From Acidimicrobiia bacterium (GTDB lineage: Bacteria; Actinomycetota; Acidimicrobiia; Spongiisociales; UBA5794), in contig DATHUV010000004.1 of NCBI GenBank assembly GCA_035461905.1, forward strand, positions 6,850 through 70,849: a DNA stretch of 64,000 bases. The letters run 5' to 3'. Both the position numbers and the translations under genes were made by a program. This document shows positions 15,699 through 39,717 of this stretch, piece after piece. Below the pieces are notes generated by a model. The model was not told the origin of the DNA. It did not search any database and worked only from the letters and a program-made list of their open reading frames with translations. Within the stretch, counting starts at the first letter, position 1; each line of letters starts with the position of its first letter.

Positions 15699-15833
15699 AC
15701 CCTGCGACATCCTCCTCGACGTCGACCCTTGGAAAAGCGCCGTTGGGGGTTTGAACGGATCGCTCCAGAACCCACTCGTCGACCGAGGTGATCCCGCGTA
15801 GGATCCGGGGAACACGAGCGACAGGGGTGATCC

Positions 15834-16766
15834 ATGCGAGTCGGACGATCCATGATCGATGTCGTCGGCGGCACCCCGGTGGTGCAGCTCCGCGAAGTGG
15901 TGCCCAGCGATGCGGCGGACGTGTTCGTCAAACTCGAGTGGTTCAACCCGACAGGGTCGTACAAGGACCGCATGGCACTCGCCATGGTCGAGGAGGCAGA
16001 GAAGCGGGGTGACCTCCGCCCCGGCATGACCGTCGTGGAGTACACCGGTGGCAGCACCGGTTCGTCCCTCGCCTACGTGTGCGCAGCGAAGGGGTATCGG
16101 TTCAAGGTCGTGTCATCGGATGCGTTCGCTTCCGAGAAGCTCAACACGATGCTGGCGTTCGGCGCGGATCTGACGATCGTCCCGAGCGACGGTGGGAGGG
16201 TCACACCCGACCTGACACCACGCATGATCGCAAAGGCCGCCGAGTACGCCGCCGAGCCCGACACCTACTGGACGAACCAGCTGTCCAACGCAGACTCGAT
16301 CGTCGGCTACCGCAAGATCGGGGAGGAGCTCCTCGCCCAGATGGACCGCCCCATCGACGTGTTCTGTGCGGCAGTGGGAACCGCCGGGCTCACGATGGGA
16401 GTCTCCTCTGCGCTCTCCGACGGCGGTTCGTCGGCCCGCATCGTGATCTTCGAGCCCGCATCGACGCCGTTCATCACACAAGGGCGTGCGGGAACCCATC
16501 GCGTCGAGGGCATCGGCATCGGATTCATGCCGCCACTGCTCGACACCGACCGGTTCGACGAGGCCCGGGCCATCGACGAGGCCGACGCACGGGAGATGGC
16601 GCGACGGCTCGCCGCAGAGGAGGGCTTGCTGGCTGGCACATCGAGCGGCCTCAACGTGTACGGCGCGATCGAGATCGCCAAGGAGCTCGGACCGGGACAC
16701 ACCGTCGTGACCGTGGCGTGCGACACGGGGCTCAAGTACCTCGCAGGCGACCTCTTCGCACCGTAA
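15834..16766 (+). CDS. PLP-dependent cysteine synthase-family enzyme (CysK/CysM/CBS-like)
   Basis: PLP-lysine motif NPTGSYKDRMA and glycine-rich GGSTGSS loop; 310 aa. Confidence 0.8.
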   Translation: MRVGRSMIDVVGGTPVVQLREVVPSDAADVFVKLEWFNPTGSYKDRMALAMVEEAEKRGDLRPGMTVVEYTGGSTGSSLAYVCAAKGYRFKVVSSDAFASEKLNTMLAFGADLTIVPSDGGRVTPDLTPRMIAKAAEYAAEPDTYWTNQLSNADSIVGYRKIGEELLAQMDRPIDVFCAAVGTAGLTMGVSSALSDGGSSARIVIFEPASTPFITQGRAGTHRVEGIGIGFMPPLLDTDRFDEARAIDEADAREMARRLAAEEGLLAGTSSGLNVYGAIEIAKELGPGHTVVTVACDTGLKYLAGDLFAP

Positions 16767-16826
16767 CCGGGCGCAGGCATCACCCTCCCGAACGGTCGCG
16801 AGGCGCCCTGCGCGTCGCTGGCTCGA

Positions 16827-19544
16827 TCAGCTGCGCGAGCGCCGCATTTGGATCTCCTTGTCGACCGCCACGAACAGCGGACCGACCAGGGAAAGGGCGA
16901 TCACGACCACCCACTGTGCCCCTGTGAGCGACACGGTCGTCAGGAGGCGCTGGAACACGCCGATCTCGATGGCCGCCACCGTGAGGAACCAGCCGAGCAT
17001 CACCCATCCCATGTAGGGGAAGAGCGGGGACGCCCAGAACGGCTGGCGTTCACGACGCAACATCAGACCGTTGTTCACACCTGCGAGGGCGACCACACCG
17101 AAGGCCATCGTCATCGACACGGATCCCACCGTGGTGCTCGGCTCATCGGGGCCGTATGAGAGCAGGAGAAGGGCAGGTCCGGCGATCAGGAACCCGCCGA
17201 TCACCCAACGGAAGGTTTGCGCCCTGGTGGCGATCTTCGTGCCGGGTCTGCGCGGAGGTCGCTCCATGACACTGGAGTCGGGTACGTCGACGATGAACCC
17301 GACCACGACCGTGGCGATGACGAAGAACTTCGCGAACAACAGCTGCATCGGGAAGAGAGCGACCCCCTCGTTGATGTTGATGATCGTGGCCAGCAGCATC
17401 AGCTGGAGTACCGAGGACAGCACTGTCAGCTGGAGCTTCACGTACGACGAGATTCGGCGGTAGATGTCCCGTCCGAGTTCGACCGCATGCACGAGCGTGG
17501 CGAAGTTGTCGTCGGTGAGGATCAGCTTCCCCGCCTGCTTCGTGACCTCCGATCCTGAACCCATCGCAACCCCGATGTCGGCCTGCTTGAGGGCAGCGGC
17601 ATCATTGACGGCGTCTCCTGTCATCGCGACGACCTCGCCGGACTCCTGCATCAGCCGTGCGAGGCGCACCTTGTCCTCTGGTGCGACCCTCCCGAAGACG
17701 TGCAATTCGGGAAGCCGCTCGATGACCGTGGCGTCGTCGAGGGCGGCGAGCTCGTTTCCGGTGATCACCCCCACGCCGAGGCCGAGCTGGTCGGCGATGG
17801 CCCTGGCCGTGATCGTGTGGTCGCCCGTGATCATCCGCACATCGATACCAGCGGCGTGGGCCTGCTGGACCGCATCCCTCGCCTCGAGGCGCAACGGGTC
17901 GATGATGCCGACCAGCGCCACCATGCTGATGTCGGAAACGGCGCCCATGGGGTCGTTCGTCGCTGTGGCGAACTCATCATCGGACAAGCCCTTGGCGGTG
18001 AAGGCGAGGACTCGTAGTCCCTTCTCCGAGAGCTCCCGGTTCGCGGCGAGGAACTTGTCGCGCACGTCGTCCATCGGAACGAACTCGCCCCCCCACCTCG
18101 CCCAACCGCACCGGTCGATCACGACATCGGGCGCACCCTTGACGGTCATGAAGTGCGGGGAGTCCGCGATGCCTCCGGTCGCCCCGGGAGGACGGTCGTG
18201 GAACGTGGCCATGAACTTGTACTCGGAGTCGAATGGCACCTCCGCACGCCGCGGCAGGCTGCGGCGGGTCTCCTCGGCATCGACGCCGATCTTGGCTGCG
18301 AGGACCACGAGGGCTGCCTCCGTCGGGTCGCCGATGATCGATCCGTCGTCCGCAACGGTGGCGTCACTGCACAGCGTCAGACCCAGTGCCAGCCTCGTGA
18401 AGTCGGGCTTCACGTTCCCTGCCGACCCGAGGATCGCACCGGTCTTCGTGTAGCCGCTGCCCTCGATCTTGTACCACTCGCCGTCAGCGAGCATCGAGGT
18501 GGCCGTCATGGCGTTCATCGTGAGGGTGCCGGTCTTGTCCGAGTTGATGACGGTCGTGCCCCCGAGCGTCTCGACGTCCGTGAGGGACTTGACCACGGCC
18601 TTGTGCTCTGCGAGGCGCTGGGCGCCCGATGACAACATCAGTTGGACGAACGTCGGCAGACCGGTCGGGATGGCCGAGATCGCCGTCGAGATTGCGAGCA
18701 GGAGGAGGGTCTCGGTGTCCTGGCCACGGGAGATCCCCACGATCGCGATGACCGCGACCGCTCCCCACGCCAGGAACCCGAAGATCTTCGTGAGCCCATC
18801 GAGCTCGAGCTGAAGCGGTGACTTGACCCGCTTGGTCGCCGTGACCATGTCGGCGATGTGACCCATCTGCGTCGACGCACCAGTCGCGACGACCACGACC
18901 GTCGCCGATCCCCGTGTGACCTGGGTGTTCTGGAACACGAGGTTCGTGCGGTCCCCAAGGGCGGTTTCGGCGTCCGGCAGTGTCGTGGCGTCCTTGGCAA
19001 TCGGAGCGCTCTCCCCTGTCAGCGATGCCTCCTGCACCTCGAGGGTTGCCGAGGTCACGATGCGGGCATCGGCAGGCACGATGTCGCCTGCTTCGAGGAG
19101 GAGGATGTCGCCGGGGACGAGGCCACTGGCGTCGATCTCCTCAACCCGATCGGACCTTCGGACCCGCGCGGTCGCGACCTGGAGCTGGGCGAGTGCGTCG
19201 ACACTCGCCATCGCCTTCTTCTCCTGATTCGTGCCCATGATCACGTTGAACAGCACCAGCGCCATCACGATGGCACCGGTCGAGATCTGTCCGATGGCGA
19301 AGCTCGCGACGCTGACGATCAGCAGCATGATGTTCATCGGGTTCGAGATCTGGCCCCTGGCCATCTCCCACGTCGTGGGAGGTGGCTCGGCGACGATCAC
19401 GTTCCGCCCATACTCGGTGAGTCGCCGCTCGACCTCCGACGGGCTCAGACCGTGATCGACGTCAGTGCCGAGCGAACCAATGGCATCGCCGGCAGAGAGG
19501 GCAAACCAAGGGCAAGAAGGAGTGGTTCGGTCGGTCGTTGTCAT
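16827..19544 (-). CDS. P-type cation-transporting ATPase (type II, Ca2+/Mg2+-type)
   Basis: DKTGTLT phosphorylation motif, TGES actuator motif, TGDAVNDAAAL hinge motif, 10 TM pattern; 905 aa. Confidence 0.9.
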   Translation of the reverse strand: MTTTDRTTPSCPWFALSAGDAIGSLGTDVDHGLSPSEVERRLTEYGRNVIVAEPPPTTWEMARGQISNPMNIMLLIVSVASFAIGQISTGAIVMALVLFNVIMGTNQEKKAMASVDALAQLQVATARVRRSDRVEEIDASGLVPGDILLLEAGDIVPADARIVTSATLEVQEASLTGESAPIAKDATTLPDAETALGDRTNLVFQNTQVTRGSATVVVVATGASTQMGHIADMVTATKRVKSPLQLELDGLTKIFGFLAWGAVAVIAIVGISRGQDTETLLLLAISTAISAIPTGLPTFVQLMLSSGAQRLAEHKAVVKSLTDVETLGGTTVINSDKTGTLTMNAMTATSMLADGEWYKIEGSGYTKTGAILGSAGNVKPDFTRLALGLTLCSDATVADDGSIIGDPTEAALVVLAAKIGVDAEETRRSLPRRAEVPFDSEYKFMATFHDRPPGATGGIADSPHFMTVKGAPDVVIDRCGWARWGGEFVPMDDVRDKFLAANRELSEKGLRVLAFTAKGLSDDEFATATNDPMGAVSDISMVALVGIIDPLRLEARDAVQQAHAAGIDVRMITGDHTITARAIADQLGLGVGVITGNELAALDDATVIERLPELHVFGRVAPEDKVRLARLMQESGEVVAMTGDAVNDAAALKQADIGVAMGSGSEVTKQAGKLILTDDNFATLVHAVELGRDIYRRISSYVKLQLTVLSSVLQLMLLATIININEGVALFPMQLLFAKFFVIATVVVGFIVDVPDSSVMERPPRRPGTKIATRAQTFRWVIGGFLIAGPALLLLSYGPDEPSTTVGSVSMTMAFGVVALAGVNNGLMLRRERQPFWASPLFPYMGWVMLGWFLTVAAIEIGVFQRLLTTVSLTGAQWVVVIALSLVGPLFVAVDKEIQMRRSRS

Positions 19545-19746
19545 CGTGGGCGCCCCGGTCTCTCAGGCACGATCCGTGCGGTGGATGTCGGCGTTGATTC
19601 TCGCAGATCGCGTGCGCTGTCGGCCTGTCTGACCGAGAACACACCCGCCTATTGCGTTCAATCATCGAGTGGCTTGTTTCGAATGTGGCGGCGACGGGTA
19701 TAGGTGCCGGACAGCTCATCTGGAGAAAGCTTCAAGGGAGACCACG

Positions 19747-19995
19747 ATGATCGAAGGAGGCGCGCCAGGCGCGGTAGCAATGGACGAGGTAGACCCTCTC
19801 GAAGTCGCTCACGCGACACCGACGGCCGTTACAGCTGGGGCCGCCGACGCCCGGGCAGCCAGCGGAATCGATGGCATGGCCACCGTCGACTCAGCCAGCA
19901 TCGCTGTACGAGCTTCTGCGGCCGTCACTGGTGCCGCCGGTTTCGTCGTCGGCATGTTTCTCGGACCCGCAAACGCCAACACAAGGGTTCGGTAG
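19747..19995 (+). CDS. hypothetical small Ala-rich protein (83 aa) with hydrophobic C-terminus
   Basis: ATG preceded by AAGGGAGA at a 6-nt spacing. No recognisable domain; could be a GC-driven shadow ORF. Confidence 0.3.
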   Translation: MIEGGAPGAVAMDEVDPLEVAHATPTAVTAGAADARAASGIDGMATVDSASIAVRASAAVTGAAGFVVGMFLGPANANTRVR

Positions 19996-20118
19996 TCGGT
20001 GACCCAGAGGCGACGTCAGTTGACGATCCGGCCCCTTGGGGGCGCCTGGGGATGCCTCGCAATGATCGCCATATCCGTGATCGCCTCCGTCGTTCTGACC
20101 GTGCTGCTCAATGTGCTG

Positions 20119-20412
20119 CTATGACCCGGCAGCACCGAGATCATCTCGTGGCGAGTCCAAGTCGGGGAGCCCATCGATGTCACCGCGGACCGAAGCGATG
20201 AACTCGCCGTCCTCCACGATGACGCGGTAGGCGTACTCGGCTTCGCGCTCGGTGCACCCGAGCACCTCCTGGAGGAACTCCACCTGACCTGAGCGACCCG
20301 AAGGGATGTCGCTGAGCCTCACGAGCCGATACTCCTCTCCGTCGACCTCCCAGGTCATCTCCGTGGTTGCGATGTCATTCGTGTGCCAACCGTTCATGTT
20401 CATCTCCCACAT
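20119..20412 (-). CDS. hypothetical acidic protein (97 aa)
   Basis: ATG with a GAGGAA RBS at 6-nt spacing; non-repetitive, balanced composition unlike the shadow ORFs. Divergent from the NERD-helicase gene. Local GC is noticeably lower than the window average. Confidence 0.45.
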   Translation of the reverse strand: MWEMNMNGWHTNDIATTEMTWEVDGEEYRLVRLSDIPSGRSGQVEFLQEVLGCTEREAEYAYRVIVEDGEFIASVRGDIDGLPDLDSPRDDLGAAGS

Positions 20413-20513
20413 TCCGGTTCCTCATTCTTCGCCGCCATCATCCTTCGCCACTATCGATCATCGCCACCATCGTGCATCCCAGGTGTGACAGATTTGCGTC
20501 CCCTGCGTTGTGT

Positions 20514-20527
20514 CGACGTGCACGTCG
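20514..20527. promoter_or_regulatory. perfect 14-bp palindrome CGACGTGCACGTCG, 57-70 nt upstream of the NERD-helicase start
   Basis: Directly visible, and sits in a lower-GC (~55%) intergenic region. Candidate operator. Confidence 0.3.
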
Positions 20528-20583
20528 GACCGGGGCGCCGGTGGAGCGAGGTTCAGAGCGGGCATCTGCGACAATCCTGCTGA

Positions 20584-22194
20584 ATGGCCATGATGTATCC
20601 CGCCCGCTTGCCGGACTCGGCTGCCCCGTCCGAGGGGGCGGTGTTCCATGCGCTTGGGAAGCTTCCGGATCCGTGGCGCGTGTTCCACTCCGTCGCGTGG
20701 CAATCGGTACGCAACGGGAAACAGGGTGACGGAGAGGCCGACTTCGTGCTCGTCCATCCCAAGCACGGCCTGATCGTCCTCGAGGTGAAGGGCGGATCGA
20801 TCGAGATCGTCGGCGGTGAATGGCGGACCTCTGGGAAGACGGGATCGCACCGCATCGACCCCATCGAACAGGCAGTGTCGTCCAAGCACGCCCTCGTCGC
20901 CTACCTGCGCGAGAGCATCGATGGCCTCCCGTGGATCGAGTCCGGGCATGCCGTGTGGTTCCCCGACGTCAGGGTCAGTGGCGACCTCACCGCCGCTGCG
21001 CCCGACGAGCTGCTCCTGGATCGATCCGACCTCTCACGCCCCGTGGCAGCGATCAACGACGTCGTGAATCGCTGGGGCATCCACAAGGCCATCCCGGAGG
21101 ACGCCCTCGAGGCGATCACTGACCGCCTCGCCCCCACGATCACCGTTCGGCACACGCTCGCCGACGACATCGCAGACATCCACGCGAGGCAGGTCGAGCT
21201 CACCGATACCCAGCGGCGGGCGCTCGACGGCTTGAAGCGTGCACGAAGGGTGCTCGTGTACGGAGGCGCCGGTACCGGCAAGACCGTCCTCGCTGCCGAG
21301 CGGGCCCGTCGTCTCGCCGCTGACGGGTTCCGGGTCGTCCTCACCTGCTTCAATCGGCCCCTCGGGGACGCCCTGCGGAGGGAGTTCGAAGGCATCGATC
21401 TCGTCACGGCAGGGTCTTTCCACCGGCTCGCCCACGAGTGGATCACCTCCGCGGGGATGGAGTTCCCCGATGAACCCGACGCCACCTGGTGGGACGATCC
21501 CGCCGGCGAGGCTGTCCTCGAGTCGTTCGAAGCGAACGGCTTCGAGGCGGACGCGATCATCGTCGACGAGGGACAGGACTTTGACGACTCTTGGTTCATG
21601 GCCCTCGAGGGCGCGATCGCCGATCACGACAACGCGCTGTTCCTAGTGTTCGCGGACCCACACCAGGCGATCTACCGAGAGGGCTGGGAGGCGCCGCCCG
21701 ACATGGTCGAGTACGAGCTCGACCTCAACTGCCGCAACACCAACCAGATCGCCACGATCGTCGCCCGCGTCTACGGGGACGAGCCCGCATCGGGCGGCAC
21801 GGACGGCCCGGAGCCGAGGTTCCTGCCCGTCGAGTCGACAGAGGGCATCGACAAGGCACTGCGCGGCGAGCTGCACAGGCTCATCAACGACGGCAACGTC
21901 GGCACCAGCGACGTCGTCGTACTCACCCAGAGCCGTGCAACGAGGGACCGCCTGATCGGCACGACCCTTGCCGGTGTCACGCTCGAGGCGATGGAGGACC
22001 ACTCCAAAGGTGTCGCCGTCGAGACGATCCACCGCCACAAGGGCCTCGAGGCTGCGGCTGCGATCGTCATCCTCGACCGCCTTGAAACAGATCGCGATCG
22101 CTCCCTGGCCTACATCGGCCTGTCGCGGCCCAGGGCCCACCTCGCCGTGATCGGTCCAGCACCCATCGGCGCCGAACTCGGCATGACCAGCTGA
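20584..22194 (+). CDS. NERD (PD-(D/E)xK-like nuclease) domain fused to a UvrD/SF1-like helicase domain
   Basis: N-terminal NERD signature (GEADFVLVHPKHGLIVLEVKGG); Walker A GGAGTGKT; Walker B/DExx IIVDEGQDF; C-terminal UvrD_C-like motif VETIHRHKGLEAAAAIVIL. 536 aa. Confidence 0.8.
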   Translation: MAMMYPARLPDSAAPSEGAVFHALGKLPDPWRVFHSVAWQSVRNGKQGDGEADFVLVHPKHGLIVLEVKGGSIEIVGGEWRTSGKTGSHRIDPIEQAVSSKHALVAYLRESIDGLPWIESGHAVWFPDVRVSGDLTAAAPDELLLDRSDLSRPVAAINDVVNRWGIHKAIPEDALEAITDRLAPTITVRHTLADDIADIHARQVELTDTQRRALDGLKRARRVLVYGGAGTGKTVLAAERARRLAADGFRVVLTCFNRPLGDALRREFEGIDLVTAGSFHRLAHEWITSAGMEFPDEPDATWWDDPAGEAVLESFEANGFEADAIIVDEGQDFDDSWFMALEGAIADHDNALFLVFADPHQAIYREGWEAPPDMVEYELDLNCRNTNQIATIVARVYGDEPASGGTDGPEPRFLPVESTEGIDKALRGELHRLINDGNVGTSDVVVLTQSRATRDRLIGTTLAGVTLEAMEDHSKGVAVETIHRHKGLEAAAAIVILDRLETDRDRSLAYIGLSRPRAHLAVIGPAPIGAELGMTS

Positions 22195-22255
22195 GCCGCA
22201 CGCCCTACAGCCGAGGCGCGCCTCCGGGCGGGGGCGAGCAACGGTGCCTCGAAGG

Positions 22256-22753
22256 TCAGGCGTCGAGGGATCCTGCGAGACGATCGAGCAACGGTACCTG
22301 AGCGGGATTGATTGCCGTGCACGCCGCCGCAAGGGGGAGCCATTCAGCCCTGTCCACCTCGGGGAACTCAGCAATGCGCCCGGAGCCCGGCGGCCACTCC
22401 ATTGGGAACGTGTTGGAGATGATCGATTGCGGATCGATGTCACCTTCGACAGCGAACGCGATGACACGCTTGCCCGCCTTCTGGACCACCTCACCGAGGT
22501 CGATGACCACACCGGCTGGCGGAGCGTGCCCGATCTCCTCACGAAACTCCCTCGAAGCCGCCTCGAGTGCCGTCTCGGATGCGGGGTCGAACTCGCCCTT
22601 GGGTATCGACCACGCCCCATCTGACCTGTTCCTCCAGAAAGGTCCCCCTGGGTGCACCAGAAGCACCTCGACCGCCCCCTCCCGGATCCGGTACAGCATC
22701 AACCCTGCGCTCACACCCACCATGAAGCCATTCTCGTCGCCTGCCGCTCTCAT
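22256..22753 (-). CDS. NUDIX hydrolase
   Basis: Nudix box GEFDPASETALEAASREFREEIG (GX5EX7REUXEEXGU); the start may be the internal Met at 22723. Confidence 0.8.
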   Translation of the reverse strand: MRAAGDENGFMVGVSAGLMLYRIREGAVEVLLVHPGGPFWRNRSDGAWSIPKGEFDPASETALEAASREFREEIGHAPPAGVVIDLGEVVQKAGKRVIAFAVEGDIDPQSIISNTFPMEWPPGSGRIAEFPEVDRAEWLPLAAACTAINPAQVPLLDRLAGSLDA

Positions 22754-22802
22754 CGGTCAGGAGTATGTTTGGGGTGAGGCTTCGAGCGCGAGGGGGTTGA
22801 CA

Positions 22803-23246
22803 GTGTCTCCCGCACGAGAGCGCTGGTATCGAACGTTGTTCTGGGTCGCGGCGATGTACGACATCGCCCTCGGGATCACGTTCCTGTTCTTCTACCGGCC
22901 GGTGTTCGAGTGGCTCGGCATCGAGGACACCCTGCCGGAGCACACGAGCTACATATCGCTCGTCGCGGCGTTCCTGTTCGTCATCGGCGTCGCATACGTG
23001 CTGATCGCTGTCGGCGACCTGGTTCGCAACCGCGACCTCATCGCCGTCGGGATCCTGTACAAGGTCGCCTACTTCTCGGTCGCACTCTGGTATCTGATCG
23101 GAGGCGTGTACCCGCACATCATCTTCTTCGTGGTGTTCGGTGTCGCCGATGCGCTCTTTGCGATCGCCATGGTCGAGTGCCGTGTCCACATCGCTCGGTA
23201 CGAACGGATCTGGATGGATGGGCCGCTCGACGCTGCCGGTGCGTGA
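22803..23246 (+). CDS. hypothetical small integral membrane protein (~147 aa, 4 predicted TM)
   Basis: GTG at 22803 preceded by GAGGGGG. The listed ORF 22308..23246 is garbage upstream of this point and clean hydrophobic helices after it. Confidence 0.5.
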   Translation: MSPARERWYRTLFWVAAMYDIALGITFLFFYRPVFEWLGIEDTLPEHTSYISLVAAFLFVIGVAYVLIAVGDLVRNRDLIAVGILYKVAYFSVALWYLIGGVYPHIIFFVVFGVADALFAIAMVECRVHIARYERIWMDGPLDAAGA

Positions 23247-23257
23247 ACGTCCACTGA

Positions 23258-23275
23258 CCCCTGCTCGCCCAGGGG
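23258..23275. terminator. GC-rich hairpin (CCCCTG-ctcgcc-CAGGGG) in the 33-nt gap between the two convergent membrane-protein genes
   Basis: 6-bp perfect stem with 6-nt loop lying exactly between the convergent stops (23246 and 23280). No U-tract. Confidence 0.3.
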
Positions 23276-23279
23276 CGCC

Positions 23280-23767
23280 CTAAAGGGAGACGAGGACGAG
23301 GACGACGCCGCTGACCACGAGGACGACGTGGACCGAGAGCAGCATCAGGCGAGGCACCCCGTACGGGTCGTCGAGGACGTAGGGAACGGGGAACCACCGA
23401 TACCAGAGCCACATGCCGAGGGAGCCACCGAGGGTGATCCCGAGCGCGATGAGCGTCCAGCCGAGCAACTCGGTGCCGTCGGTCGAGAGGATCATGCCGA
23501 CGAGCCCGACGGTGACGAGCGTGGCCGGCAGGATGAGGGTGTATCGCAAGAGTGGCCGCGACAGGCTCGCTGCGAGGACGACCGGCATGATCACCCAGCC
23601 GAGCATGAGCAGCACGACCACGGCCCGTGGCGCACCACTGCGGATGGCCAACCACGAGATCAGCCCGAGTGCCACCGCGCTCACCACGACCAAGCGCCGA
23701 ACCCTCCGTTCGAACAGGGGATCGGTAGTGAGCTCGACGCCCTGTCGGTGGTCGGCGAACCTCACGC
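23280..23767 (-). CDS. hypothetical small integral membrane protein (~162 aa), translationally coupled to the upstream radical SAM gene
   Basis: Only the C-terminal 160 aa of listed ORF 23280..24272 is hydrophobic and protein-like. A GTG start at 23767 overlaps the TGA stop of the radical SAM gene (GTGA). Confidence 0.55.
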
Positions 23768-25093
23768 CGTCATGACCTCCCGGGACCGTCGGTCGGCACC
23801 ACTGCGGACCTGCGCCTTGAAGCCTGCGCGGCGGCTGGTGAGATCCCCCTCCGAGTAGATGTACCGGCCGAGCTCCACGAGCCCCGACTCGAGCTCTGCG
23901 ACGGTCATGCCCATCGGCTCGAAGTTGACGTCGAACAGCGTGCACTTCTCCCACGCACCGGGCTCGATGATTCGGCCCTCGTCCATGAGCCTGCGGTACA
24001 GCGGAGTCCCCGGGAACGCCGTGAGCACGGTGATCTGGACGTCGAACGGGTTCGTCTCGTCCACGAACTCCTTGATCGAGTCGAATGCCTCGGGACCGTC
24101 GCCGTCGAGTCCAAGGACGAAGCAGGCGTTCACGGCGATCCCCGATTCCTGGACGGTTTCGATCACGCTCCGGTACTCGTCGAGTCGTCCCAGTTTCCAG
24201 TTCCGCCGCGTCTCGAGGCCGTTGAGCGCTGCGGGGTTGAGGCTCTCGAACCCGATCAGGATCTCGCGGCATCCCGCCTCGCGCATCATGTCGAGGAGCA
24301 CGGGGTCATCAGCGACGGAGGCGTCGGTCTCTGTGAACCACGACACGCCCTCGTGCCCGATCGCCTCGACGAGGGCGTGCGATCGGCGCTTGGCAACGAA
24401 CGTGTTGTCGTCGGAGAGCTCGACGAACGGATTCGCCCAGATCTCCTTCATCGCCCTGATCTCCTCCCCGACCTTGTCGGATGGTTTCAGCTTGTACCTC
24501 GGGGACAGGAGCACCGACGATGCGCAGAACTCGCACCGCCACGGGCATCCTCGCTGGGTCTGGACCGTCAGTCGGTTGTACCGCTCGGGATCGAGGAGGT
24601 CGTAGCGCGGAATCGGCGCGTTGGCGAGGTCGTACGAGCCGTCCGATCGGTAGATCCCCGCCAGGTTCCCTGCGAGGGCGTCGTCGAGGATCATCTCCCA
24701 CACCGGCTCTCCCTCACCGACCACGACCGCATCGCAGTACGCCAGCGCCTCATCCGGCAAGGCGGTGACGTGAAGACCGCCGATCACCGTCGTCACTCCT
24801 TCGGCGCGGAACCGCTCGGACAGGGCATAGGCATCCTTGACCTGGGCCGAGTAGCTCGACAGCGCAGCGACGTCACAACCGGGAAGCGGGTCGAGGTCGG
24901 CGATGTCGTCGACCTCGTAGTAGTCGACATCGAACCGGTCGTCCGTGAGGGCCGCGAGCGTGAGGAGGCCGAGGCTCGGGAGCGAGGCGATGGTCCTCCC
25001 CCTCTCGACGAACCCCGGAAGGCTCAGACCGAGGGCGGTGAGCTCGGGGTTGTAGGCCCGAACCCCTGACATCGCAATGAGGGCGATGCGCAT
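23762..25093 (-). CDS. B12-binding-domain radical SAM protein (class B rSAM, HpnJ/BchE-like)
   Basis: N-terminal cobalamin-binding Rossmann-like domain followed by the CPWRCEFC CxxxCxxC radical SAM cluster motif; 443 aa. Confidence 0.85.
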   Translation of the reverse strand: MRIALIAMSGVRAYNPELTALGLSLPGFVERGRTIASLPSLGLLTLAALTDDRFDVDYYEVDDIADLDPLPGCDVAALSSYSAQVKDAYALSERFRAEGVTTVIGGLHVTALPDEALAYCDAVVVGEGEPVWEMILDDALAGNLAGIYRSDGSYDLANAPIPRYDLLDPERYNRLTVQTQRGCPWRCEFCASSVLLSPRYKLKPSDKVGEEIRAMKEIWANPFVELSDDNTFVAKRRSHALVEAIGHEGVSWFTETDASVADDPVLLDMMREAGCREILIGFESLNPAALNGLETRRNWKLGRLDEYRSVIETVQESGIAVNACFVLGLDGDGPEAFDSIKEFVDETNPFDVQITVLTAFPGTPLYRRLMDEGRIIEPGAWEKCTLFDVNFEPMGMTVAELESGLVELGRYIYSEGDLTSRRAGFKAQVRSGADRRSREVMTA

Positions 25094-37468: not shown

Positions 37469-39116
37469 TCAGGGATGCCGCGCCACCCAGTCGCCGATGG
37501 CCTCGAGGAACACATCGCCGTAGGTGTCGAGCTTCTTCGCTCCGACCCCGCTGATGGACAGGAACTGGGCCTCCGTGGTCGGCCGGAGTCCGGCCATCTC
37601 GGCGAGGGTGGCATCGGAGAACACCACATACGCAGGCACGGAGCGCTCGTCGGCGAGACGCCGCCGCAACATCCGAAGCTCCTCGAACAGGTCGTTCGCC
37701 TCCTCGGACATCACCGCCTGCCCACCACCACCACCACCGGCAGGCTTCGGCGTCCGGGTCGTATGGAGGTCGACGTCGAGGTCGGTACACACATCACACG
37801 ACGTCCCACACCGTTCGATCGACTCCCCGAAGTACCTCGCAAGACCCTGATGACGGCACCTCGCCGTCTCGGAGTAGTCGTACATGAGGCGAACGTGCCG
37901 CTGCTGGACCGCATCGTCCTTCGACACGATCCGTTCGAGCTGAACGACGTCCGCCCACGAGTAGAACAGGTAGCAGTCCGCGTTGAGGCCGTCACGACCC
38001 GCCCTGCCGATCTCCTGGTAGTAGCCCTCAGGGGACTTCGGCATGTCACGGTGGATCACGTATCGCACGTTCGACTTGTCGATTCCCATGCCGAACGCGA
38101 CCGTGGCACAGACCACTTCGACATCATCACGAATGAACGCATCCTGGACCCTCGTCCGTTCCTCGGGTTCCATTCCTGCGTGATAGGCAGCGGAACGGAT
38201 GCCGAGCGACCGCAGGTAGTCCGCAGTCGACTCGGCGGACTTGCGGGACAGTGTGTAGACGATGCCGCTCTCGCCTCGATGGCGGAGGCTGATCCTGCCG
38301 ATGTAGTCACGAGCACGGATCGTTCGTCCGTCATGATCGCCCTTCTTCAGGGCGCGCAGCTTGAGGTTCGAGCGAAAGAAGCTCGTCTGGACGATCATCG
38401 GGTCGGTGAGGTCGAGTTGGGAAGCGATGTCGCGTCGTACCCGCTCGGTCGCGGTTGCCGTCAAGGCAAGCACGGGCACGCCGAAGCGCGACTTGAGATG
38501 GATCAGTTGGCGATAGGCGGGGCGGAAGTCATGGCCCCATTGGCTGATGCAATGCGCCTCGTCGACGGCGATCAGCCGAACGTCCGCCGCATCGAGGACC
38601 GAGCCAAGCTCAGCACCGAGACCTTCGGGGGCCGCGTAGACGAGCTCGTACTCCCCCGCTGCGAGGGCGTCGATGCGTCGCTTCCGCTCCTCGTACTCGA
38701 TGCTCGAGTTGATGAACGTGGCGGCGATCCCGAGCTCGGTGGCCGCATCCACCTGGTCCTTCATGAGCGCAATGAGCGGTGAGATGACAAGCGTCGTGCC
38801 ACCGATGAGTCGGGCGGCGAGTTGGTAGGTGAGCGACTTCCCGGACCCCGTCGGCATCACGGCGAGGCAATCGGTCGCCCCGAGTGCTGCTTCGATCACA
38901 CGACGCTGTCCCGGCCTGAACTCCTCGTACCCGAACACGGACCGCAACTCTCGATACAGAGACGCGTCGTCCACCCGGATCGGGTGGCGCAGCGGTTTCG
39001 ACGCCCGGGATGGGCGCGACGACGCAGGTGCAGCGGGACCCTGCGCGGTGTCGTCGAGGATGTCCCAGTAGCCCTCGTCGATGTCGGGGAAGGGCCCTGA
39101 GGTCGGAGTCGTCACG
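37469..39116 (-). CDS. recQ: ATP-dependent DNA helicase RecQ
   Basis: PTGSGKS Walker A, DEAH box (VDEAHCISQWGHDFR), RecQ Zn-binding Cys cluster (CRHQ...CGTSCDVC), C-terminal HRDC domain. Start at in-frame GTG ~39116; the listed ORF is extended. Confidence 0.85.
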
Positions 39117-39174
39117 TCGACAGCATACGGTGCACGGCCGACGCGACGATGAGCGAAGGGCGTATGGTCACCAG

Positions 39175-39717
39175 ATGCGCACGGAAAGACCGCCAGACGG
39201 TGATCCCTGGCCCGGCGAGTACACGTACTGTCCGCTATGCCGCTCCGAGCTGACCTGGACGCTCGTCGGTGGGTCGCCACGCATGCGGTGTGGAGCATGC
39301 GGGTTCGTCCATTGGCGCAACCCCGGTGTCGGGGCGGCCGTTGCAGTCTTCGACGACGACGGCAGGATCCTCCTCATCCGGCGCGGACCCGGAATGACCA
39401 GGGAGGGTATGTGGGCCATCCCTGCCGGATTCGTGACCTATGGCGAGGAGATCAGGGAGGCCGCTGCTCGTGAGCTCGAGGAGGAGACCGGCCTCACGGC
39501 CGACGTCGGCGACGTCGTGTGGATCGCATCGAACTTCCACGATCCGGCCAAGCTCACCGTCGGCGTGTGGTTCTCGGGAACGATCACCGGCGGACAGCTC
39601 GTCGCCGGTGACGATGCAGACCGTGCCGAGTACTTTGCCCTTGACCAGCTTCCGCCGCTTGCCTTCGACACCGACAAGGCATACCTGAGAACCCTCGGTG
39701 CCACCATCGTCGACTGA
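39175..39717 (+). CDS. NUDIX hydrolase with N-terminal zinc ribbon (NudC/NADH-pyrophosphatase-like)
   Basis: CPLC...CGAC zinc ribbon followed by Nudix box GGAVAV...GFVTYGEEIREAAARELEEETG. The listed ORF 39010..39717 has a spurious N-terminal extension. Confidence 0.75.
   Translation: MRTERPPDGDPWPGEYTYCPLCRSELTWTLVGGSPRMRCGACGFVHWRNPGVGAAVAVFDDDGRILLIRRGPGMTREGMWAIPAGFVTYGEEIREAAARELEEETGLTADVGDVVWIASNFHDPAKLTVGVWFSGTITGGQLVAGDDADRAEYFALDQLPPLAFDTDKAYLRTLGATIVD

Follow-up and report, generated by a model that had tools for sequence, protein, structure and literature searches.

The DNA analysed here is a stretch of 64,000 nucleotides (the window; 65% GC) from a genome of an Acidimicrobiia bacterium, and the element under study is the plus-strand gene at 20584-22194, which encodes a fusion of a NERD nuclease domain and a superfamily 1 (SF1) helicase of 536 amino acids (aa). 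An earlier note, made from the sequence alone, had put this protein forward as a candidate single-protein anti-phage factor. The open reading frame (ORF) was found where the note had placed it and is a real gene, with Pfam domains and a coding composition (GC content at third codon positions, GC3, of 0.85) like that of the real genes of the window. Upstream lies a divergent gene (20119-20412, minus strand), downstream a convergent NUDIX gene (22256-22753, minus strand); because both flanking genes point the opposite way, the helicase gene is monocistronic by geometry, in agreement with the note. The lower-GC intergenic context mentioned there does exist (0.61-0.63 upstream of the gene, against 0.654 for the window), but the dip is slight and the gene itself has a GC content of 0.670. 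The parts of the gene are as follows.

20584..22194, plus strand: gene for the 536-aa NERD nuclease / SF1 helicase fusion, stop codon included (ORF, GC3, Pfam, PADLOC, AlphaFold2 model, dN/dS)
20584..20988, plus strand: N-terminal NERD-type PD-(D/E)xK nuclease domain, aa 1-135 (Pfam, conserved residues, domain model)
Plus strand: candidate catalytic residues E17, D53 (20740-20742), E67 (20782-20784) and K69 (20788-20790) (alignment of 58 homologues)
20989..21228, plus strand: aa 136-215, a helical linker that joins the nuclease to the helicase and ends in the Q-motif region with T207 and Q210 (secondary structure of the model)
21229..22191, plus strand: compact SF1 helicase core, aa 216-536 (Pfam AAA_19, UvrD-helicase, AAA_30 and UvrD_C_2; Foldseek)
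21262-21285, plus strand: Walker A motif GGAGTGKT, aa 227-234
21565-21579, plus strand: motif II DEGQD, aa 328-332

Pfam NERD (PF08378) matches residues 16-113 of the protein with 46.7 bits against a cutoff of 22.1 (E 5e-12). Residue conservation was assessed in an alignment of 58 homologues with 41-91% identity, to which all statements on invariant residues refer. D49, G50, D53, E67, K69, G70 and G71 are invariant and E17 is conserved in at least 90% of the sequences; the catalytic residues D53, E67, K69 and E17 are thus all present. The E...D...ExK pattern is the canonical one of PD-(D/E)xK enzymes, with E67-x-K69 as its ExK element. Modelled alone, the N-terminal domain had a mean confidence (predicted local distance difference test, pLDDT) of 91.5. 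A fold comparison of this domain, which the earlier note had suggested, did return PD-(D/E)xK nucleases, although the Foldseek matches were weak (best E 1.9e-3) and so give the restriction-endonuclease-like fold weak support only. All interpretable matches were of this class: Shedu SduA, VC1899, NucS/EndoMS, Cas4-family proteins and Card1. SduA, the Cas4-like proteins and Card1 are linked to defence, NucS/EndoMS is a repair nuclease and VC1899 is uncharacterised.

In the C-terminal part, AAA_19 was matched over residues 210-364 (46.7 bits, cutoff 25.1), the N-terminal UvrD-helicase family scored 31.3 bits, above its cutoff, and AAA_30 was matched as well, while UvrD_C_2 (residues 477-523, 21.1 bits) stayed below its cutoff of 27.4. 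The Walker A and DEGQD motifs named in the earlier note are in place, and all SF1 motifs (Q, I, Ia, II, III, IV, V and VI) are present and invariant or nearly so: Q210, G227-T234, C255/N257/P259, D328-D332, Q361, N382/R384, K486/G487/E489 and Y510/S514/R515. Among these, G227, G230, G232, K233, D328, E329, Q361, N382, R384, K486, G487, E489, Y510, S514 and R515 are strictly invariant, as are T207 and Q210 at the end of the linker. The helicase has about 320 aa and no large accessory domains. A full-length AlphaFold2 model built on the alignment of 58 homologues (pLDDT 92.2) consists of an N-terminal alpha/beta nuclease domain, the helical linker and two RecA-like domains with short insertions only. 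Searched against the PDB with Foldseek, this model gave human SLFN11 and SLFN14 first (E 4e-17 to 1e-12), followed by UvrD, Upf1, RecD2 and Dna2, a mixture of SF1A (UvrD, Rep) and SF1B/Upf1-like (RecD2, Upf1, Dna2) structures; a sequence search of the PDB found no close solved structure, its sole match being a spurious AAA+ Walker A. Judged by the model, the helicase is a compact SF1 enzyme of the Schlafen/DUF2075-Upf1-RecD kind and not a typical UvrD of 650 aa. The complete UvrD-like helicase described earlier is therefore complete in its motif set, but it is not specifically UvrD-like, its nearest structures being SLFN11 and SLFN14.

The best PADLOC match of the protein was PDLC03813 'RTasNERD-Hel' (E 7.8e-63, residues 1-522 against positions 1-509 of a profile of 519), and the second was PDLC01087 'C3a187 NERD+UvrD' (E 6.8e-24). 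The PADLOC Nhi profile (PDLC02372) was matched at E 5.7e-4 in the Walker A region only (residues 207-253). No NCBIfam model, repair equivalogs included, reached its cutoff. PF09848/DUF2075 scored 22.8 bits against a 24-bit cutoff (E 6.7e-5); several homologues have a precomputed PF09848 match, and the one at locus L071 scores 27.2 bits. The RTasNERD-Hel profile originates from cluster 485 of Mestre et al. 2022, a group with an N-terminal NERD domain and a C-terminal helicase found beside 7 of 17 UG34 reverse transcriptases (RTs). In PGAP annotation, relatives are named 'NERD domain-containing protein/DEAD/DEAH box helicase'. The earlier note knew of no characterised ortholog; we likewise found none in the literature, but the family itself had already been catalogued in PADLOC. 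The window protein is a further member of this known family; it may work like Nhi but is not Nhi by profile.

The family has more than 1,861 matches in a 90%-clustered database and, in a set of 1.84 billion representatives, at least 1,683 clusters (50% identity, E<=1e-30); it has at least 527 loci in a collection with one genome per species (185,579 species). Its members occur in Acidimicrobiia, Chloroflexota, Cyanobacteria, Alpha-, Gamma- and Deltaproteobacteria, Planctomycetota, Bacteroidota and others, and relatives were found on 22 of 72,556 plasmids, some of them conjugative, and in one phage record. We read this distribution as that of a rare and patchy family, scattered horizontally across phyla.

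The genes flanking about 87 family loci were grouped into clusters, and those that recurred were annotated; the resulting counts are without a matched background control. DrmA (E 1e-218) and DrmB (E 2e-90) directly adjoin the homologue in 17 of these loci, the homologues concerned being 30-46% identical to the window protein. In most of them the NERD-helicase is co-directional and its start adjoins the stop of DrmB, which is the nuclease slot of DISARM. A UvrD/GajB-like helicase often precedes the pair and a DrmMII-like C5 methyltransferase often lies nearby, so that these DISARM-like operons have the order UvrD/GajB-like helicase, DrmA, DrmB, NERD-helicase and often methyltransferase (L071:2834-14284; L094:1167-10686, on plasmid NZ_CP029836.1 of Azospirillum ramasamyi at 73027-82546; L043, L056, L068, L076, L079, L080, L088 and others). 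The homologue embedded in the operon at L071 matches RTasNERD-Hel at 2.3e-69. According to the YprA/DISARM preprint, canonical DISARM has a PLD nuclease (DrmC) after DrmB; a variant with a NERD-helicase goes unmentioned there. Annotated plasmids agree with this arrangement: on an Azospirillum plasmid the order is UvrD, helicase-related, DUF1998, NERD-helicase and then DarT, and on a Burkholderia plasmid a sigma-70 factor and the NERD-helicase face a cluster of DUF1998, helicase and cytosine methylase.

Other defence genes were also found as direct neighbours. BrxC/PglY lies just downstream of the homologue in four loci (L021, L038, L039, L047), TmtA (sacsin-NOV_C) just upstream in four (L009, L037, L041, L059), and McrBC just upstream at L006:4127-9611; further direct neighbours are a TIR/KAP-NTPase protein and WYL regulators, and DarT and DrmD were seen as well. 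The members linked to BrxC/PglY, TmtA and McrBC fall in separate clades of the family tree. These contexts suggest that the NERD-helicase has repeatedly been recruited as an accessory effector. Most sampled loci have no recurrent partner, and an RT cluster was neither among the recurrent neighbours of the 87 or so loci nor in the listed Pfam annotations of the context loci. The family is clearly associated with defence, as the full-length PADLOC match and the DrmA/DrmB, BrxC, TmtA, McrBC and DrmD genes directly beside or near many relatives indicate, and it seems to serve as an exchangeable module of nuclease and motor.

In a distance tree the window protein falls in an Acidimicrobiia clade together with L001, L002, L003/L011, L091, L092 and L005. 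No recurrent partner gene was found in this clade (hereafter the solo clade), and the clade is nested within branches linked to DISARM, McrBC, Tiamat/TIR and DpdF. One of its members, the 62% relative, lies beside DpdF-like (1e-89) and DrmD (3e-291) genes. The 91% relative, L001, is located on ERZ25039600 contig_91, a contig of 2.7 Mb, and is collinear with the window, the common order being P-type ATPase, orf97 (the divergent gene at 20119-20412), helicase, NUDIX, membrane protein, p161, radical-SAM (rSAM) and DAO. L001 contains extra blocks of 2.8 kb (cyclase/AAA regulator) between orf97 and the helicase, of 4 kb (MarR and ABC/FtsX exporter) after NUDIX, and of 1.9 kb further on. When window positions 15700-23290 were compared with L001:382-18587, four indel blocks were seen within about 12 kb, and the extra cargo of L001 comprised a DUF2652/FMO pair, a 913-aa cyclase/AAA/HTH regulator, the MarR and ABC/FtsX exporter set and a 560-aa protein. 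The stretch is rich in indels, and its variable cargo is regulatory and transport-related, not defensive.

Compared with L001, the helicase gene has a nonsynonymous divergence (dN) of 0.056 and a synonymous divergence (dS) of 0.69, i.e. a dN/dS of 0.082, and the flanking genes have dN/dS values of 0.06-0.09 and dS values of 0.42-0.79. Within the protein, dN/dS is about 0.07 in each catalytic domain (0.072 in the nuclease domain), and constraint is looser in the linker (0.133). The low dN/dS and the flank-like dS mean that the gene is functional and has diverged together with its neighbours; it is therefore neither a recent arrival nor a remnant.

Beyond L001 the picture changes. Homologues with 74%, 69%, 68% and 62% identity occupy unrelated loci, and the helicase is missing from all 80 metagenome loci in which the adjacent rSAM gene has an orthologue (57-82% identity); about a dozen of these loci have 3-10 kb of flank on the correct side, and the helicase is absent there too. 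Presence/absence or positional polymorphism was thus observed, the former being what the earlier note had proposed to look for. Because synteny ends beyond L001 and the rSAM loci lack the helicase, the gene is not a syntenic core gene of all relatives; it is such a core gene that, according to the note, would have refuted its proposal.

The Pfam scan, which between 10.2 and 32.7 kb covered the ORFs accepted as real genes, confirmed the NUDIX and B12-binding rSAM neighbours named in the earlier note. The genes at about 10-33 kb encode a sugar-type ABC transporter, an amidohydrolase fusion, a pyridoxal-phosphate (PLP) enzyme, a P-type ATPase, NUDIX, two small conserved proteins, the B12-rSAM protein, a DAO oxidoreductase, an arginase-family protein, a beta-lactamase-fold hydrolase, an EEP phosphatase/nuclease-fold protein, a GNAT acetyltransferase, CorA and BipA. 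PADLOC, run on the window, gave no defence match near the gene apart from one weak partial match, so the defence island that this check had been expected to reveal did not appear. A tblastn search of the 64-kb window with DrmB and DrmA clusters found no DrmB and only a weak, generic superfamily 2 (SF2) match at 37952-38410, in a RecQ-like gene 16 kb away. That gene (37469-39298, minus strand) encodes a 609-aa SF2 helicase, about 35% identical to RecQ/DpdF-like helicases that neighbour family members at L031, L067, L016 and L007, and is probably an ordinary RecQ.

The immediate neighbours were also considered as partners. NUDIX was rejected: it adjoins the helicase only in the window and in L001 and is not recurrent in the 87 or so loci, and at L139:2786-3247 it stands beside an arginase-family gene without the helicase. 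Because it is found there without the helicase, it belongs to the local neighbourhood and not to the helicase. It also evolves faster (77% aa identity and dN/dS 0.21 against L001), and its MutT1-like match is weak (E 8.5e-8, far below cutoff). Of the two small orphan ORFs that the note had placed beside the gene, the one at 20119-20412 (minus strand) is a genuine gene and conserved, with 80% identity to its copy in L001. The other, 19747-19995, does not pass the coding-composition filter and is not represented there; with no coding GC3/GC2 pattern, family match or homologue, it is probably not a gene. As a partner or antitoxin orf97 is unlikely, since it has no family matches and a 2.8-kb insertion separates it from the helicase in L001. 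L001 lacks a counterpart of the 540-bp stretch at 19620-20158 in which the ORF 19747-19995 lies. This stretch and orf97 are together enclosed by an imperfect inverted repeat of 23 nt (19549-19571 and 20517-20539, 78% complementarity), which may be due to chance. On the other side lies a closely conserved three-gene module of a membrane protein (22803-23246, plus strand, 147 aa), p161 (23280-23765, minus strand, 161 aa) and the B12-rSAM gene (23762-25093, minus strand, with DUF4070), in which the rSAM stop overlaps the p161 start. The trio is kept in about 60 of the 80 metagenome loci at 57-82% identity. Its two small proteins match no Pfam family, and the rSAM has only a sub-threshold HpnJ/BchE-like match.

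Two non-coding features lie in the divergent intergenic region.

20514..20527, no strand: perfect 14-bp palindrome CGACGTGCACGTCG, judged not significant
20570..20575, plus strand: -10-like hexamer GACAAT, 8 nt before the ATG, candidate promoter

The palindrome, which the earlier note had pointed out, exists, but perfect palindromes of at least 14 bp are at chance level in the window (9 observed, 8.8 expected), and CGACGTGCACGTCG is absent upstream of every relative, the 91% one included; as an operator it was therefore rejected. Boxes similar to the hexamer (GACAAT, CACAAT, CATCAT) stand at the same upstream distance in L001, L002, L005, L091 and L092, and in several relatives with such a box no Shine-Dalgarno-like sequence could be seen by eye upstream of the start. 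A scan for the sigma-70 consensus found no promoter. Leaderless mRNA is common in Actinomycetota, and the position of the box suggests, from sequence alone, that the transcript may be leaderless. A terminator hairpin in the convergent gap (22195-22255) was considered and rejected, as the fold was no better than that of shuffled sequences (z 0.37) and the terminator scan was negative.

Taken together, these data make it plausible that the window protein is a single-protein nuclease-helicase immunity factor that acts autonomously against foreign DNA, a reading of which we are about half convinced. The structural neighbours SLFN11/14, Dna2, Upf1 and RecD2, which are immunity or processing enzymes of the nuclease/helicase kind, speak for it. 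The enzymatic activity, DNA substrate, polarity, autonomy and anti-phage or anti-plasmid role that we infer for it could be combined as follows. The compact SF1 motor would load on DNA ends, nicks or single-stranded replication intermediates and translocate along or unwind them, feeding the engaged DNA to the N-terminal NERD nuclease, which would cut it. Such an ATP-driven and self-contained enzyme could sense and degrade intermediates of phage or plasmid replication or entry in the manner of Nhi, with Dna2 as a further analogy. The Acidimicrobiia lineage may have shed its partner genes, leaving a copy that works alone.

It should be noted, however, that several observations weigh against an autonomous immune function. 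Our literature search found no paper testing any family member. The neighbour counts, as stated above, have no matched background, and many family members sit in multi-gene systems, so that autonomy is not guaranteed. Four of the five other solo-clade contexts are nondescript, and the gene co-diverges with its flanks in one close relative, like a stable chromosomal gene. In the window itself, all neighbours within about 10 kb are metabolic, transport or housekeeping genes, and the Pfam scan found no RT, methyltransferase, integrase or transposase among them. There are no tRNAs and no Rfam match in the window, and the flanking repeats are short and chance-like only. The composition is native, with typical GC and GC3 and no sign of recent transfer. 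The small defence or accessory island that the earlier note had described around the gene was thus not borne out.

That the protein is a host enzyme of DNA repair or replication intermediates (Dna2-, AddAB- or AdnAB-like) with no immune role strikes us as unlikely. The housekeeping-type neighbourhood, the native composition, dS and dN/dS values equal to those of the flanks and the collinearity with the 91% relative would all suit such an enzyme, as would the weak MutT1-like match of the adjacent NUDIX, the presence of Dna2, UvrD and RecD2 among the structural neighbours and the mostly nondescript contexts of the solo clade. Repair helicases are usually broadly conserved and syntenic, however, whereas this family is rare and scattered across phyla, the locus changes between relatives at 62-74% identity, and the helicase is missing from 80 of 80 loci with the neighbouring rSAM module. 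Members on plasmids, and members that recur next to or inside clusters of the DISARM, BREX, Tiamat and McrBC types, also argue against repair; NUDIX is not recurrent, and no NCBIfam repair equivalog was matched. That the gene is what remains of a former defence system, decaying or no longer functional, as its solitary position and the indel blocks that flank it in the comparison with L001 might suggest, is hardly credible: the ORF is intact, all catalytic motifs are present, and the selection analysis (dN/dS of 0.08 overall and about 0.07 per catalytic domain) effectively refutes it.

The autonomy of the protein may be questioned in another way, as it could be a module that needs partners encoded elsewhere (a DrmA/DrmB-type pair, a methyltransferase or an RT) and is inert or tightly autoinhibited when alone. 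The 17 loci in which the homologue adjoins DrmA-DrmB, in most cases in the same direction and directly at the DrmB stop, are consistent with this, as are the association with 7 of 17 UG34 RTs (Mestre et al. 2022), the DpdF-like and DrmD genes beside the 62% relative and the autoinhibition of full-length Nhi in vitro. We nevertheless consider a dependence on partners distinctly improbable, since a homologue of DrmB is missing from the 64-kb window, where the generic SF2 match in the RecQ-like gene was the only one, and neither an RT nor a methylase nor a defence profile was found within 10 kb. In addition, a recurrent partner is missing at most of the sampled loci, and the solo clade keeps both domains under strong constraint without a conserved neighbour. 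Membership in a DRT (UG34 reverse-transcriptase) defence system, which the full-length RTasNERD-Hel match as best PADLOC hit would suggest, is very unlikely indeed. The profile derives from a cluster seen with 7 of 17 UG34 RTs only, no RT cluster recurs at the 87 or so loci or lies within 10 kb in the window, and 17 UG34 members stand against at least 1,683 clusters (50% identity) of the helicase family.

A broader proposal, which we offer tentatively and not without doubt, is that NERD-SF1 helicases form a portable 'motor-plus-blade' effector cassette used by unrelated immune systems, in the DrmC slot of DISARM and next to BrxC, TmtA, McrBC or UG34 RTs, and that this cassette has become autonomous and chromosomally stable in the Acidimicrobiia clade. 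If so, the window copy would be a natural minimal version, suited to studying how foreign DNA is recognised when neither a sensor partner nor a methylation mark is present. Should the protein prove to be an autonomous defence enzyme, a family so far untouched by experiment would join the few single-protein immune factors that combine nuclease and helicase (Nhi, Nhi-like of Millman et al. 2022, Hna), and their range would extend to Acidimicrobiia, a poorly studied environmental class. The wider family, with its place in the DISARM nuclease slot and its BREX, Tiamat and McrBC neighbours, may offer a handle on the swapping of effector modules among defence systems. Taken alone, the window holds a modest finding, namely a conserved gene of a catalogued, uncharacterised family in an unremarkable neighbourhood, and the most interesting thread, a swappable NERD-helicase effector in DISARM-like operons, lies outside it.

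Several known systems resemble the window protein in part. We know of no experimental test of the UG34 system. RTasNERD-Hel (cluster 485 of Mestre et al. 2022) agrees with the window protein in architecture and size and in its full-length profile match; it differs in that cluster 485 adjoins 7 of 17 UG34 RTs and no RT lies within 10 kb in the window, and the helicase family is far larger. In DISARM, homologues occupy the nuclease slot after DrmB elsewhere, whereas the window has no DrmA, DrmB or methyltransferase, and the canonical system (DrmA-DrmB-DrmC and methyltransferase) uses the PLD nuclease DrmC in place of a NERD-helicase. The eukaryotic Schlafen group 3 proteins (SLFN11, E 3.7e-17; SLFN14) and Dna2 (3.7e-11) likewise carry a nuclease N-terminal to an SF1 helicase, and Schlafens restrict viruses; the resemblance lies mainly in the helicase core (TM about 0.45), the identity is low (13-16%), the Schlafen nuclease has a different fold and acts on tRNA/RNA, and these proteins are much larger. 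In PglW (BREX type 2), HEC-02B and ZwsA the PD-(D/E)xK nuclease is likewise of the NERD subtype. Experiments have established a defence role for HEC-02 and ZwsA, and one has been proposed for PglW. The NERD domains of these proteins have other partners, namely kinases, VHS/S4 domains or, in trans, an ABC ATPase; ZwsA cleaves RNA, and none of the proteins is a fusion of NERD with an SF1 helicase.

The nuclease-plus-helicase logic of the Nhi/Hna type, to which the earlier note had likened the protein, is a fair analogy, but by profile the protein does not belong to the Nhi family (E 5.7e-4, Walker A only). This sequence comparison used the PADLOC Nhi profile alone. Nhi itself (SERP2475 of Staphylococcus epidermidis; Bari et al.) also joins an N-terminal PD-(D/E)xK nuclease to an SF1 helicase; both activities are required for immunity, and the single gene suffices. 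On its own, the N-terminal fragment acts as a nickase and 3'-5' exonuclease; full-length Nhi is autoinhibited in vitro, and a phage single-stranded-DNA-binding protein (SSB) modulates sensitivity. Nhi differs from the window protein in that its nuclease is HsdR-like and not NERD and that it has 606 aa with a C-terminal glyoxalase/bleomycin-resistance-like domain. The structural neighbours reported for Nhi (Dda, Upf1, DNA2) overlap with those of the window family in Upf1, DNA2 and the Schlafen/DUF2075 group, and both families are rare (less than 1% of genomes), patchy and partly plasmid-borne.

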